A stretch of 64,000 nt of DNA from Raja brachyura. Taxonomy: Eukaryota. Position numbers and translations under genes: made by a program. The notes under the pieces are model-generated. The model ran no database searches and was not told the DNA's origin. It worked only from the letters and a program-made list of their open reading frames with translations. The DNA lies in contig OY740800.1 in assembly GCA_963514005.1 (NCBI GenBank), positions 41,168,001 through 41,232,000 of the forward strand, given 5' to 3'. This document shows positions 791 through 63,690 of the stretch, in pieces (position 1 is the first letter of the stretch; each line of letters starts with the position of its first letter).

Positions 791-849
791 TGAGGCGTGT
801 GAGGCTGAGAGCGTTTGCTTGGTGAATGACTCGCCTTGTTTCCCTACAG

Positions 850-1945
850 GTGGAGCGAGAGAAATCCCTGCTGATGAGCAACCTCCAGGAGTCTCAGAGC
901 CAGCTGGAGCACACCAAGGGCGCCCTGAGCGAGCAGCACGAGAGGGTCCACAGCCTGACGGAGCACATCAACGCAATGAGGAGGCTCCAGGTCAACAAGG
1001 ACTCGAAGACCGACCTGGAGAACGAGAAAGGGCGGGAGTCCGGGGAAGAGACGCACGACTACGAGGTGGACATCAACGGGCTGGAGATCCTGGAGTGCAA
1101 GTACAAGGTGGCCATCACCGAGGTGATCGACCTCAAGGCTGAGCTGAAGAGCCTGAAGGAGAAGTACAACAAGTGCGTGGAGACCTACACGGAGGAGAAG
1201 GCCAAGTATGAGAGTCGGGTACAGGAGCTGGACAAGCAGGTGAGCTGCCTGGAGAAGATGAACAAGGAGTACAACGACAAGGTGTCGCACTTCGAGACGG
1301 AGGTCAAGTCGCTGACGGTCATGGCCAACGAGGGCCACAACACGTTGAACACGGCGCAGGACGAGCTGGTGACGTTCAGCGAGGAGCTGGCCCAGTTGTA
1401 CCACCACGTGTGCCTGTGCAACAACGAGACGCCCAACAGGGTGATGCTCGACTACTACAGGCAGAGCAGGGTGACGCGCAGCGGCAGTTTGAAGGGTCCC
1501 GACGACCCACGGGCCGTGCTGTCCCCGCGCCTGGCCCGCCGCGGCCTCTCCTCGCCGACCGTCGAGCCCCGCAACTCCCCGGACCACTCGCCCAGAGAGG
1601 GCAGCGGTAGCGGCGGCGGCGGCGGGCAGCAGAGTCCCACCAAGCCCGCCAGCGTTCCCCCCCCCCCCATCCTCGCCCGTCTCCGACCCCGGCGACCTCC
1701 GCAAGGAGCCCATGAACATCTACAACCTGAACGCCATCATCCGCGACCAGATCAAGCACCTGCAGAAAGCGGTGGACCGCTCGCTACAGCTGTCCCGCCA
1801 GCGGGCGGCCGCCAGGGAACTGGCCCCCATGATCGACAAGGACAAGGAGGTGTTGATGGAGGAGATCCTCAAGCTGAAGTCACTGCTCAGCACCAAGCGC
1901 GAGCAGATCGCCACCCTCCGCACTGTCCTCAAGGCCAACAAGCAG
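850..1945 (+). CDS. BICD1: BICD1 large internal coding exon (coiled-coil region); apparent +1 frameshift in the C12 run at 1657-1668
   Basis: Acceptor tttccctacag|GTG and donor AAGCAG|gtaact. Translation VEREKSLL...[17 protein letters not shown]...[13 protein letters not shown], then in the next frame [49 protein letters not shown]...LKANKQ. This matches vertebrate BICD1 as recalled and fits BICD1 better than BICD2. Confidence 0.96.
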
Positions 1946-2035
1946 GTAACTCCAGCAATAGCAGCAGAATCTGGCCATTCGTCCCATCACCTCTACCTCG
2001 ACTCAATCCCATATACCCATCACTTGTGTCTGTGG

Positions 2036-2382
2036 TCAGGAAACGTGTTCCCGATGTTGGGGGAGTCCAGATCCAGGGGCCACCGTTTAAGAATAAGGAG
2101 TAAGCTATTTAGAACGGAGACGAGGAAACACTTTTTCTCACAGAGAGTTGTGAGTCTGTGGAATTCTCTGCCTCAGAGGGCGGTGGAGGCAGGTTCTCTG
2201 GATGCTTTCAAGAGAGAGCTAGACAGGGCTCTTAAAGATAGCGGAGTCAGGGGATATGGGGAGAAGGCAGGAACGGGGTACTGATTGGGGATGATCAGCC
2301 ATGATCACAGTGAATGGCGGTGCTGGCTCGAAGGGCCAAATGGCCTACTCCTGCACCTATTGTCTATTGTCTATTGTCTATT
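2036..2382 (+). mobile_element. CR1-type (HER1-like) LINE 3' fragment
   Basis: [17 protein letters not shown]...[39 protein letters not shown], with tail (ctattgt)n. Confidence 0.9.
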
Positions 2383-25346: not shown

Positions 25347-25990
25347 CAAGTCAAGTCAAGTTTATTCGTCACATACACATACGAGATATGCAGTGAAATG
25401 AAAAGTGGCCGTGCTTGCGAATTGTGCAAAAAAACTACAAAACAGAATGGAACAGAATCACATATTCACATATTACATATTTGTGGGAGAAAAAAAACCC
25501 CCCAGCAATTTTAAAAAGACACCACACAACAGTAGAATGGTCTAGTAGAGTTGGTCCCTGGTGAGATTGGAGTTTACAGTCATAATGGCCTCTGGGCAGA
25601 AATTCCTTCTCATCGTCTCCGTTCTCACAGCGTGGCAACGGAGGTGTTTGCCTGACCGTAGCAGCTGGAACAGTCCGTTGCAGGGGTGGAAGGGGTCTCC
25701 CATTATCTTATTGGCTCTGGAGTTGCACCTTCTGATATATAGTTCCTGCAGGGGGGCGAGTGAAGTTCCCACAGTGCGTTCGGCCGAACGCACTACTCTC
25801 TGCAGGGCCTTCTTGTCCTGGGCAGAGCAATTCCCAAACCAAATGGTGATATTTCCAGACAAGATGCTTTCCACAGCCGCTGTGTAGAAGCACTGGGGGA
25901 TTCTCAGAGACATTCTGAATTTCCTCAATTGCCTGAGGTGGTAAAGGCGCTGCCTTGCCTTACTCACCATTGGTGCAGCGTGTGATGTCC
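25347..25990 (-). mobile_element. Rex1/Babar-like LINE 3' fragment
   Basis: KARQRLYHLRQLRKF...FYTAAVESILSGNITIWFGNCSAQDKKALQRVVRSAE...DPFHP...LRSG, a typical post-RT C-terminus. Tail aataaa(cttga)n on the minus strand. Confidence 0.85.
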
Positions 25991-26391
25991 ATGTTCTCCA
26001 GAGAGGCTGCCTGACCAGTTGAGCTTGCTTGATCTTGTACACAATGAGAATCGAGGGATGTGGAGATGGGGCAGACGGTTGGAACTGAGTAGAAGGTCAA
26101 CCATGTTCTTAGGGTCAAGGAGTGATGGAAACAGGCCTTTCGGCCCAACTTGCCCACAACGACCAACATGTCCCATCTACACTAGTCCTACTTGCCTGCA
26201 CTTGGCGCATATCCCTCTAAACCTGTCCCATCCATGTACCTATCTAATTCCTTCTTAAATGTTGTGATAGTCCCTGCCTCTTATTGAACAACAGAGTGAG
26301 GAGGGGACATGGAACGACCTGCGTTCTTCTTTAAACCACATACTCCAGTGATGCTGCCGGACCTGCTGAATTACTCCAGCACCTTGTGATG

Positions 26392-29810: not shown

Positions 29811-29860
29811 GAAGTTGTCCTACAACTTTAGGCTGTGCACGCCACACGAAAGAAGAAGAA
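29811..29860 (+). mobile_element. 5'-truncated copy of the (GAA)n-tailed retroposon
   Basis: gttgtcctacaactttaggctgtgcacgccacacgaaagaagaagaa, flanked by the direct repeat (ga)accattttat at 29799-29810 and 29858-29869. Confidence 0.8.
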
Positions 29861-59545: not shown

Positions 59546-61522
59546 AACCTACAGAGCAGCACGTCTTTGGGATGTGGGAAGAAACCCCTGGGGCCCAAAG
59601 GAAACCCTCCTGTGGCCATGGGAAGAACGTGCAAACTCCGCACAGACAGCACCTGAGGTCAGGATTGAACTGGGTCGCTAGGTGTTTAAGAGACTTTTAG
59701 ATAGTCACATTGATATGCAGGGAACTGAGGGACATGGATCATGTGCAGGGAGACATTAGCTTATCTTGGCATCATATTCAGCACAGACATTGTGAGTCAA
59801 AGGTCCTGTCCCTATGCTGTACTTTTTTATCTTCTATTTGGACTTTGGAACAGTTAGCACTACCAAGTATTTTATAGTTTATTCCTCCAGAACTGCATAA
59901 ATGTACAGTATTACTGGGAATGCCTGTATGAGGACAGTAGCAAAGGATACCAAACTGGCAGACAAAGGTCAGGACAGGTAAAAGTTGAAACCCACCAAGC
60001 AGGTGAGGGAATTTAAATTCAAGTAACTAGCAAAAATTAAATAAAAAGCTAGTGTAATTTGTTTTCATTTTTGAAGGGCTAGCAGGTGGAGGAGGTAACC
60101 TGGAGAACAGAAAGGGGCTACCTGAGCGTGCGGGCAGGCTTACCTGGGCAAAGGAGCGGGGTCACCCGGAGTAGGATGCGGGTTCACCTGGTGGAGGGAG
60201 CAGTTCTACCTGGGTGATGGGTGGGGCTACCTGAGGAAAGGGGGGGGTTCACCTGGTGGAGACGACAGAGCTGCCTGAGTGGCTGGGAGGGGCTCCAGCT
60301 GGAGGGTGCAGGTTTACCTAAGCCGGTGGGCGGAGTTACCCGAGTGATGGGATGGGTCTACCTGGTGTAGGAGGCGGGGTTACCTGAGCAAAGGGGTGGG
60401 GTTACCTGAGTGAAGGGGTGGAGTAACCTGAGTGTAGGAGTGGGGTTACCCGAGGAAAGATGGTGGGTTACCTGGTGGAGATGGGTGGAGCCACCTGTGC
60501 AGGTGGGGGGGGGGTTACCTGGTGGAGGGGTGAGGTTATCTGTAGGGGTGGAGTTACCTGAGTGAATAGGTGGGGTTACCTGAGTGAAGGGAGTTGGGTT
60601 ACCTGAGCCAAGGGGAGGAGCTGCCTCAGTGGGTGGGTGGGGCCACCTGAGTGAAGGATCAGGGTTACCTGGTGGAGGTTATCTGAGTGTATGGCAGAGA
60701 GTAGCTGGTGCAGGGGTTACCTGGCGGAGAGGGCAGGGTTACCTGAGCGAAGCATTGGGGTTACCTGAGTACAGGGGGGCTATCAGGTGGAGAGGGGCGG
60801 GGCTACCAAAGCAGGTTGGGGGTAACCTGGTGGAAGGGGTGGAGTTACCTCAGTGAACGGGTGGGGTTACCTGACCAGGTGGGGCATAATTACCTGGTTG
60901 TAGGGACAATTAACTGGTGTAGGGGTTCAGTTATCTGTAGTGGTGGACTTACCTGAATGAAGGGGTAGAGTTACCTGAGTGAAGGGGAGGGGCTCCTGGC
61001 AGAAGGGATGGGGCTACCTGAGCAGATGGTGGTTACCTGGTGGAAGGGATGGAGTTCGCTGGTGGGGTGGAGTTATCTGAAGGGGTGGGTGGGGTTTCCT
61101 GGTGAAGGGGCAGGACTACCTGAATGAAGAGGGTAAGGATACCTGAGCGATTGGGAGGAGTTACCTGAGTGCGGTGGGGTTACCTGAGTGAAGAGGGCGG
61201 GGTTACCTGGTGTAGGGAATGTTGTTTACCTGAAGAGGGCAGGGTTACCTGAGTGAAGGGGGCAGGGTAACCTGGTGTAGCGGCTGGCATCTGCGTGAAG
61301 GGGGTGGGGTTATCTGAGTGAAGTGGGTGGGGTTATCTGGTGTAGGGGTTACCTGGTGTAGGGGGTGGGGTTACCTGAGTGAAGGGGGTGGGGTACCTGA
61401 GAGTAGGGGGGTTACCTGAGTGAAGAGACCAGGGTTACCTGAGTGAAGAGGGTGGGGTTACCTGAGAGAAGAGGGTGGGGTTACCTGAGTGAGGAGGGTG
61501 GGGTTACCTGAGTGAGGAGGGT

Positions 61523-61576
61523 GGGGTGGGAGATTGCAACCTTCACGTGGTCTGCCCTGTTTCAATGAATGCAATC
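61523..61576 (+). ncRNA. HDV/CPEB3-like ribozyme fold (this copy has U at the catalytic C position)
   Basis: P1 GGGGUGG/CUGCCCU with G1-U wobble, P2 GAUUGCA/UGCAAUC, P3 ACC/GGU, L3 UUCACGU, minimal P4 and J4/2 UGAA. Confidence 0.75.
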
Positions 61577-61662
61577 AACCTGGCGTGCACAATCAAATAA
61601 GATCAAATAGAACACGTTGTCCTACAACTTTAGGCTATGCACGCCACAGCAAGAAGAAGAAG
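61523..61662 (+). mobile_element. Short non-autonomous retroposon (Ingi/Vingi-like derivative) with 5' HDV-like fold and (GAA)n tail
   Basis: Non-satellite insert of ~140 bp ending gcaagaagaagaag. Its 3' part recurs at 29811-29860 with a target-site duplication. Confidence 0.7.
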
Positions 61663-62812
61663 TGTAGGGGGTGGGGTTACCTGGTGAGGAGGGTGGGTTC
61701 CTGTTGTAAGGGGTGGGGTTACCTGGTGAAGGGGGTGGGGTTACCTGGTGAGGAGAGCGGGGTTACCTGGTGAAGGGGGTGGGGTTACCTGGTGAGGAGG
61801 GTGGGTTTACCTGGTGAGGAGGGTGGGGTTACCTGGTGAGGAGGGCGGGGTTACCTGAGTGAAGGGGGTGGGGTTACCTGGTGTAGGGGGCGGGGTTACC
61901 TGGTGTAGGGGGCGGGGTTACCTGGTGTAGGGGTGGGGTTACCTGGTGTAGGGGGTGGGGTTACCTGGTGTAGGGGCTGGGTTACCTGGTGTGGGGGCTG
62001 GGTTACCTGGTGTAGGGGGTGGGGTTACCTGGTGTAGGGGTGGGGTTACCTGGTGTAGGGGTGGGGTTACCTGGTGTAGGGGTGGGGTTACCTGGTGTAG
62101 GGGTGGGGTTACCTGGTGTAGGGGTGGGGTTACCTGGTGTAGGGGTGGGGTTACCTGGTGTAGGGGGCGGGGTTACCTGGTGTAGGGGTGGGGTTACCTG
62201 GTGTAGGGGTGGGGTTACCTGGTGTAGGGGGCGGGGTTACCTGGTGTAGGGGGTGGGGTTACCTGGTGTAGGGGCTGGGTTACCTGGTGTAGGGGGTGGG
62301 GTTACCTGGTGTAGGGGTGGGGTTACCTGGTGTAGGGGTGGGGTTACCTGGTGTAGGGGCTGGGTTACCTGGTGTAGGGGGTGGGGTTACCTGGTGTAGG
62401 GGGCGGGGTTACCTGGTGTAGGGGTGGGGTTACCTGGTGTAGGGGTGGGGTTACCTGGTGTAGGGGTGGGGTTACCTGGTGAAGGGGATGGGGTTACCTG
62501 GTGAAGGGGATGGGGTTACCTGGTGTAGGGGGCGGGGTTACCTGGTGTGGGGTTACCTGGTGAAGGGGTGGGGTTACCTGAGTGAAGGGGTGGGGTTACC
62601 TGGTGAAGGGGGCTGGGTTACCTGGTGTAGGGGGTGGGGTTACCTGGTGTGGGGTTACCTGGTGAAGGGGTGGGGTTACCTGAGTGAAGGGGTGGGGTTA
62701 CCTGGTGAAGGGGGCTGGGTTACCTGAGTGAAGGGGGTGGGGTTACCTGGTGAAGGGGGCGTGGTTACCTGAGTAAAGTGGGTGGGGTTACCTGAGTAAA
62801 GGGGGTGGGGTG

Positions 62813-63035
62813 CCAGAGATTGACGGGGCGTGTGTCCACTGTGGCCAGTGTCCAGATCGCTACAGTAGCTCCAGCAGCAGCGGGCGGGAGAGAGTGAGAG
62901 CGAGTGAGAGCGAGTGAGTGGGCGCCGGCACTATGTGAACTATTCGCCGACTCTGCCTTTCACTGAACGCCAGTGTGTGGCTCCTTGCGGCGGGGTTGCT
63001 TGAGCCTTGTCCCGGGGTCGGGACGCGTCGCCGCC
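62813..63035 (+). promoter_or_regulatory. CpG-rich promoter / 5' UTR of the downstream gene
   Basis: GC boxes (ggggcgtg, gggcggg), GA-rich repeats (gagtgagagc x2) and locally high CpG density directly before a Kozak-context ATG. Confidence 0.6.
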
Positions 63036-63120
63036 ATGCAGCAAGACTTCAGGAGAGTTGCGATGAAGAAGAAGGGGATCCATTCTCCGCTCCTCCAACG
63101 CAAGGCGTTGGGTGAAACGG
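63036..63120 (+). CDS. FGD4: Putative first coding exon of FGD4 (frabin) long isoform, MQQDFRRVAMKKKGIHSPLLQRKALGET(G)
   Basis: Kozak gccgccATG and a phase-1 donor ACGG|gtaagg. FRRVAMKKK resembles the recalled FRRVAIRRK of the human FGD4 long N-terminus. FGD4 follows BICD1 on the same strand in vertebrates (recalled synteny). Confidence 0.7.
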
Positions 63121-63690
63121 GTAAGGCACCACCTGACTGAATGCTGCAGGCAACAGAGAGGGAGGGAGAGAGACAGGGCAGTGTTGGTTTGTGACAAGTT
63201 TACATGTCTCGCCCCCGTTCCTGGAGATAGATTCCTTCCAGAGTTTCATCTCAGGGCGTCTCTGACTAAGATCCCGCCTTCCCCCTGCCGACAACAAAAC
63301 ACTAGAGTATTTACCGCTGGGATAAACGTTTTCCTTCCTTCTTGTCGGTTGCATTTGATTCCCAGACGAAGGGGTTCAAGACTAGACAGTTATTGCACAT
63401 TGCGTTATTTTCAAAGCCAGCTTTCGTGTCAGAGTTGACTGGGATCTTTGCAAATGAAAAAGTAAAGTGTAAACCATGGACTTGGAATCCCGCTGACAAA
63501 GCAGGTGATTAGTTGTTACCCTTTTCAAGGAAGTTTGCAGAACATCCTTGGCATGGTTGTCTCTCTGGCCCTGACCGAGCTCTCGGAGTAGCGTTCTGTT
63601 TTTGGGCGTCTGAACACTCTGGTCTGTCCTTTGCAGTCGGCTGAGTCAACTTTGGTGAAGTTGCTCGGGGAAGGTGGTTCACTTGTGCTG

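Follow-up and report, generated by a model that had tools for sequence, protein, structure and literature searches.

A dispersed short retroposon with a predicted minimal HDV-like ribozyme head, apparently derived by internal deletion from a Vingi-like LINE

The window analysed here is a 64-kb stretch of the Raja brachyura genome (contig OY740800.1, positions 41,168,001 to 41,232,000 of the forward strand). Near its end, a minisatellite that adjoins a CpG-rich stretch is interrupted by a short retroposon with a (GAA)n tail, the subject of this work (Table 1). An initial annotation, made from the letters of the window alone, had described this element as a retroposon headed by a ribozyme like that of hepatitis delta virus (HDV), and the positions that it gave for the helices, the loop L3, the joining strand J4/2, the fold-back stem and the tail are all correct. 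In our reading, the element is composed of the first 81 and the last ~45 bases of a 3.1-kb Vingi-like long interspersed nuclear element (LINE) and exists in more than 10,000 copies; its head is likely to cleave itself from a transcript just before base 1, and the LINE protein is likely to copy it from the (GAA)n tail. We put the probability of this reading at roughly 0.8.

Table 1. Coordinates of the element, its parts, its relatives and its surroundings (window positions, or the authors' L-numbered loci)
Feature	Position	Strand	Basis or remark
Full-length short internally deleted retroposon, subfamily A	61523..61662	+	29 siblings, 94-96% identity over the whole length, unrelated flanks
Predicted minimal HDV-like ribozyme, element nucleotides (nt) 1-54, no true P4	61523..61576	+	Helices, descriptor, cross-family pair counts
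P1, 61523-29 with 61552-58; P3, 61539-41 with 61549-51; L3, 61542-48	within 61523..61558	+	
G of P1.1	61559		Would form the single P1.1 pair
J4/2	61566..61569	+	T at 61566 replaces the family C, a CpG-type change
LINE 5' untranslated region (UTR)-derived stretch, nt 55-81, with 5' arm of the fold-back stem (61581-89)	61577..61603	+	Aligned to LINE heads L153 and L165; blastn against L147, L150 and L140 to nt 77-82
Short linker that seems to duplicate part of the A-rich 5' UTR letters before it	61604..61616	+	
LINE 3' end: last codons, stop TAG (61631-33), short 3' UTR, stem 3' arm (61638-46), (GAA)n tail	61617..61662	+	
Inverted-head loci	L251-L310; also L114, L117, L119, L120, L122, L123, L144, L145, L150		14 of the 60 in the tail-based sample; both pieces inside one target-site duplication
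Second-family heads	L244:3852-3932; L198:968-1048; also L185, L186, L187, L196	- (L198)	
22-nt-period G-rich minisatellite, interrupted by the element and not part of it	60328..62811	.	
CpG-rich stretch; contains a candidate first coding exon (ATG 63036, GT donor 63121)	62801..63400	+	Context only
5'-truncated sibling, tail only	29811..29858	+	Inside an 11-nt duplication, 29800-29810/29859-29869

The short family and its partner LINE

The family is abundant, as had been supposed. A DNA search returned 1,374 candidates, and the 40 that were scored are all 94-100% identical over nearly the whole length. Exact patterns, whose counts are lower bounds and include some LINE copies, gave 2,340 matches for a 30-nt head and at least 10,739 for a 25-nt core; full-length copies number in the thousands. 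The catalytic position is C in 9,999 of the core matches (93%) and another letter in 740, which agrees with the expectation that the family as a whole would carry C in J4/2. Boundaries were read from 76 copies, a non-random set drawn from fetched loci (29 chosen by likeness to the window copy, the rest by patterns). Position 1 is G, the predicted cleavage G of P1, in 65 of them and the positions upstream are mixed; copies thus start where the initial annotation had placed the 5' end. Of 61 copies that look full-length, 49 are flanked by target-site duplications of 7-17 nt; among swapped controls the figure is 31 of 600. T precedes the element at position -1 in 40 of the 76, possibly reflecting a target preference.

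There are two main subfamilies. Subfamily A, which includes the window copy, is 141 nt long in most siblings (140 nt in the window) and has CGAA in J4/2; subfamily B, about as common, is 139 nt long and has CUAA. The J4/2 sequence CGAA, given earlier for active HDV-like ribozymes, is that of subfamily A, and CUAA that of both subfamily B and the LINE. A rarer short type lies closer to the LINE, as in the LINE-like short subfamily of L128-L130. The same boundary and variants occur in contigs of four runs that carry four other organism labels, and in those four runs no change at the catalytic C reached 8%. Family contigs from one run, X15, were rejected as evidence of expression, its status as RNA being a guess. 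One locus (G000:C1:14572477-14950560) holds about ten copies, nearly identical and reading CAAA in J4/2, at a spacing of ~7-20 kb; they probably lie inside a larger tandem duplication.

An autonomous partner sharing both ends had been anticipated, and a decayed one is present in the same genome. A head-anchored exclusion pattern aimed at it returned mainly subfamily B (6,507 matches), and a search by endonuclease family (PF14529) gave 30 loci, none with the head. A tail-anchored pattern revealed a recurring, different upstream sequence that reads as the stretch where an open reading frame (ORF) ends, and a walk from there led to a 3.1-kb LINE (L140:1250-4352) with both the head and the tail of the short element. 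In terms of this LINE, the short element consists of nt 1-81 followed by a linker of 13 nt and by the final ~45 nt, stop codon included. In further copies (L147, L152, L154, L155 and L165) the LINE head begins at or beside the same run of G. The single frame of the LINE, read from broken copies and from the homologue P0001, matches endonuclease and reverse transcriptase (RT) families in Pfam, with a weak zf-RVT match below the cut-off and no RNase H family. P0001 itself is full-length (1,019 amino acids), 69% identical and has the same domain layout. LINE copies are 83-91% identical among themselves and 208 match the exact tail pattern. Since no intact frame was found among the 129 matches listed, of which the best candidates were scored and which do not amount to proof, the family looks extinct in this genome.

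We call the partner Vingi-like on its architecture only: a compact single frame with an apurinic/apyrimidinic endonuclease (APE) and RT and without RNase H is the Vingi layout in PMC13708176. Its closest protein relatives (P0161, P0135 and P0001; 69-86% identity) include one named from a deep-sea eel; most others are 36-50% identical and the named ones come from arthropods, a patchy spread that may mean horizontal transfer.

To judge from these comparisons, the short element is an internal-deletion derivative of the LINE and neither a composite nor a short interspersed nuclear element (SINE) of transfer RNA (tRNA) origin. It has no ORF, shares both ends with the LINE, and forms its own copies with target-site duplications and the LINE-type tail, as do short internally deleted elements (SIDEs) and other bipartite non-autonomous elements. 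Because both ends are common to the LINE, its counterparts would be the R2 SIDEs or NARTc. The initial annotation was thus right in calling the element non-coding, unrelated to tRNA and made of a ribozyme and a LINE tail, and needs refining in one point: the element is no SINE-like composite, head, 5' UTR and tail all being LINE-derived.

The predicted ribozyme fold

The head fits a nested double pseudoknot of P1, P2 and P3 in which the first pair of P1 is G.Y. In the window copy P1 has seven pairs, opening with G.U and including two further wobbles, and all seven positions of P2 pair (61532-38/61570-76). L3 has the expected U..CG arrangement with a P1.1 pair, and both L3 and G37, which would form that pair, are conserved across the 76 copies. 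An HDV-fold descriptor matches the window at this one site and nowhere else, provided that T is accepted at the catalytic position; the version requiring C, the one run on shuffled sequence, gave no match in 3.7 Mb of shuffled metagenome. The family has the catalytic C and the window copy lacks it. C-to-U change at this position inactivates HDV-like ribozymes (PMC10879173), and the window copy is therefore predicted to be inactive. Loss of this C by CpG decay had been proposed, and the wider family bears it out: TG stands at the catalytic position in 77 of 100 non-C core matches listed (counted by eye), the majority that such decay predicts.

Comparison between families provides further evidence for the fold. 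The ribozyme of the LINE differs from those of subfamilies A and B at nt 8 (J1/2), nt 32 and nt 45 (the second letter of J4/2), and pair 5-32 is U-A in the LINE and U.G in the short element. A more distant comparison drew on 80 metagenome loci encoding relatives. Among these, a second Vingi-like family carries a homologous head ~130-150 nt before the ORF (L244, L185), with the same L3, CUAA in most copies and a real P4; blastn detects decayed heads in seven further loci. In an alignment of 13 heads, one of them (L174) poorly aligned, 92.3% of cells pair and 8 of the 16 pairs change on both sides; 8 of 500 shuffles reach eight double-changed pairs, and slid structures are 28-47% paired with one or two such pairs. 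The covariation expected in P1-P3 is thus present, and we regard these compensatory changes as good but not strong support for the fold. L174 also holds, at 286-362 and upstream of a long RT frame, a weak candidate HDV-like fold with an atypical 5-nt L3.

Several observations weigh against an active ribozyme in a Vingi-type element. A search with Rfam models, suggested earlier as a check, gave no HDV or CPEB3 match at E<=10 for the window copy and four siblings, only unrelated weak matches, and pseudoknot-free folding of the window copy does not recover P1. G37 is separated from C44 by a very short linker; as read from the sequence, a G-U-[UUCG]-A-C hairpin could form there and would pair the catalytic C. 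Where the design descriptor of PMC6326823 has two P1.1 pairs, this fold has one (PMC3185411 allows either number), and the C-R-R-A of that descriptor is not matched by the CUAA of the LINE and subfamily B. P1 of the second family has six pairs, one below the usual number; the strict descriptor, with its seven-pair P1, missed this family, and of the 19 metagenome loci that include upstream DNA no more than 2 pass a relaxed one. The covariation comes from essentially two lineages, and the structure was derived from the same sequences. Conservation among genomic copies does not equal selection, the copies decaying neutrally. As to the partner, the 240 homologues listed include no named Vingi or Ingi protein on which an RT tree could be anchored.

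Inverted heads and the setting of the window copy

In truncated LINE insertions, part of the LINE's 5' end is often present in inverted orientation. Our sample was 60 of the first 71 listed among the 208 LINE tails, the remaining 11 being loci fetched earlier. Fourteen of the 60 have an inverted 5'-end piece: in six a long inverted piece is joined to a far-downstream forward piece, in five the inverted piece is short, and in the other three a later insertion has broken up the same arrangement. An inverted head also occurs in 4 of the 11 loci fetched earlier; the head is joined forward in 1 of the 60, and none of the 60 is full-length. In an adjacency test on 125-nt bins of L140, the first bin scores 9 and the 23 other bins 2 in total. 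An exact duplication of at least 9 nt surrounds both pieces in 10 of the 14; of these ten, six overlap the inverted piece by 2-5 nt, one does not overlap it, and three leave 6-9 nt unexplained. L288, with an inverted head 685 nt upstream, was not counted, as its truncated piece has a duplication of its own. A similar inverted layout with a 248-nt gap is found in the second family (L198).

The outer junctions of the 14 lie at nt 71-81 in twelve, at nt 109 in one, and are ambiguous in one; in other samples they extend to nt 489. The interval nt 71-81 is also where head joins body in the short element and in L147, and it is preceded by a stretch complementary to the 3' UTR, 8 nt long in the LINE and 11 nt in subfamily A. 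We infer that the inverted heads arose by twin priming on RNA whose ends were held together.

In the window, the 5' strand of P1 resembles the minisatellite unit. Copies elsewhere, with unrelated flanks, open with the same letters, and the strand therefore belongs to the element. The target-site duplication of the window copy itself is indistinguishable from the array. The unit of the array is not the same upstream and downstream of the insert, the downstream part being the more uniform (88% matches, compared with 68% upstream), as if the insert limited homogenisation of the repeat. The window copy lies ~1.4 kb upstream of the candidate first exon. The 28-amino-acid peptide of that exon (63036-63122) has no Pfam match; it is reminiscent of the start of the long FGD3/FGD4 isoforms, which would fit the Bicaudal-D exons at window 826-2284. 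In four runs that we guess to be RNA, cover at the candidate promoter region is limited to a simple repeat; the promoter setting that the initial annotation gave the array is putative. An effect of the window copy on the gene is unsupported, because its transcript could not be shown. Elsewhere in the window, the truncated sibling with its duplication is present as had been described, its match to the element spanning 29814-29860, and an open frame with an ALKBH8_N Pfam match (25545-26096, minus strand) is likely part of another repeat.

Proposed mechanism, alternatives and known systems

Copies would be transcribed by read-through from host promoters, and the ribozyme would cut just 5' of G1, freeing an element with a defined 5' end. 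The endonuclease and RT of the LINE would then be supplied in trans and start target-primed reverse transcription at the (GAA)n tail. For the cutting, the transcription and the trans-mobilisation we argue by analogy with R2, L1Tc and related systems (PMC6765202, PMC3185411, PMC4035085, PMC3414825). Going further, the complementarity could dock the 5' UTR beside the 3' end in the RNA-protein particle, so that nt 71-81 would become a place for reverse transcription to jump or to prime anew; the short element and the inverted-head insertions would both result from this. By extension, Vingi-type LINEs might in general have an active P4-less HDV-like ribozyme and a looped RNA, with a re-priming hot spot behind the ribozyme that would make inverted-head chimeras of about a quarter of insertions and would produce ribozyme-headed mini-elements time and again; we offer this generalisation tentatively, at a little under even odds.

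Other explanations of the head deserve consideration. It might be mainly an internal polymerase II promoter starting at base 1, the fold being weak or incidental: the first 77 nt of L1Tc are both promoter and ribozyme (PMC3185411), a promoter would equally give a sharp 5' start, and the missing P4 and the possible UUCG hairpin may impair catalysis. A promoter leaves unexplained, however, why P1, P2 and P3 change in a compensatory manner between two distant families in which L3 and J4/2 are fixed, and why copies start exactly on the P1 G. We therefore consider it improbable as the main role of the head, a dual function being compatible with self-cleavage. Alternatively, the fold could form but cut little, its role being to shield the 5' end or to bind a protein, as the cap-like protection afforded by the R2 ribozyme fold (PMC13708176) and the existence of hundreds of T copies would allow. 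Yet C is kept in all three source lineages, and the T copies are mostly TG at CpG, roughly matched by CA-type losses (by eye, in the matches listed), as post-insertion decay predicts; this explanation strikes us as more improbable still. That the element is an ordinary tRNA-derived SINE with chance pairing in its head fits its size and its LINE-derived tail. We searched the heads of two copies for the A/B box pattern and found none, shuffled sequence yields no descriptor match, and the head is the LINE's own 5' end. The last point refutes a tRNA origin, to which we attach next to no credence.

For the inverted heads alone there is a more serious competitor: in place of one looped RNA, their source would be either another RNA molecule (dual priming) or a hot spot of priming in A-rich sequence. 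Most priming points fall at nt 71-81, an A-rich stretch also present in the LINE-like short subfamily of L128-L130, T is enriched just before insertions, and in L1 twin and dual priming could not be distinguished (PMC2837659). Nevertheless, those inverted heads that are long enough to type belong to the LINE type and not to A or B, which are far more numerous; several extend to nt 109-489, a part that only the LINE has; and other LINE bins show almost no such inverted matches. We lean against this competitor while granting it a substantial chance.

If self-cleavage is real, one animal genome holds ~10,000 potential self-cleaving sites, with half of the intronic ones in the sense orientation to host genes, and the copies amount to a library of natural mutants of a 54-nt ribozyme whose type has been reported until now almost exclusively in phages. 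A 5' ribozyme would also be extended to the Vingi-like clade, which is absent from the ribozyme-bearing LINEs listed in PMC5786205. The inverted-head hot spot makes testable the question, posed in the same source, of why few LINE clades spawn bipartite elements, and a looped RNA would answer why few of them spawn internally deleted partners. Vingi-1 is being developed as a gene-insertion tool whose donor RNA carries both UTRs (PMC13708176); template design and junction checks would have to reckon with self-cleavage and with inverted-head products. In the literature searched, a scope that leaves Repbase, Dfam and patents outside, we found no description of a Vingi ribozyme, of this family or of Vingi inversions, and a prior description is quite possible.

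The mammalian CPEB3 ribozyme is single-copy and intronic, in contrast to a family dispersed in thousands that does not match the Rfam CPEB3 model. It has a single P1.1 pair, a full P4 and helices different from those of this element. The two have the same seven-letter L3, at nt 20-26: the initial annotation had named UUCACGU as the CPEB3 loop, and it matches the mouse primer, 18 nt from the cleavage site, in PMC10919898. Special kinship with CPEB3 is nevertheless unsupported, since this L3 is common to the distant LINE family and Rfam gives no match. Closer in size are the minimal HDV-like and theta ribozymes, which also have no P4 domain, a short J1/2 and the catalytic C first in J4/2; nearly 99% of these are in tailed phages (PMC10879173), whereas here the fold heads a retroposon in a large animal genome. 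For the inverted heads the model is L1 twin priming, with two pieces of opposite orientation inside one target-site duplication and a short overlap at the 5' junction (PMC2837659); here, unlike in L1, the second priming is concentrated in the first ~110 nt, as far as 3 kb from the first-strand stop.

As a whole, the element most resembles three known groups. The R2 SIDEs of Drosophila likewise join a 5' HDV-like ribozyme to a LINE 3' end by internal deletion, have precise 5' junctions, and may, on one proposal, have originated by a template jump (Eickbush and Eickbush 2012, PMC3414825). They are 500+ nt long, confined to ribosomal DNA and called rare (PMC3414825), whereas the present family is ~140 nt long, dispersed in more than 10,000 copies and probably served by an APE-type endonuclease. 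NARTc, RIME and SIDER, with the Pr77 ribozyme of L1Tc/ingi, are also non-autonomous and dispersed, share both ends with an Ingi-group LINE and have a single P1.1 pair; they differ in belonging to trypanosomes, in their 77-nt ribozyme with P4 and in a partner that encodes RNase H (PMC4035085, PMC3185411). The Vingi clade and its internally deleted derivatives show the same compact single frame with APE and RT and without RNase H, and bipartite short derivatives (PMC5786205, PMC13708176). The design is thus already known from R2 SIDEs and NARTc/RIME; what differs is the clade, the P4-less size, the copy number and the inverted-head hot spot.
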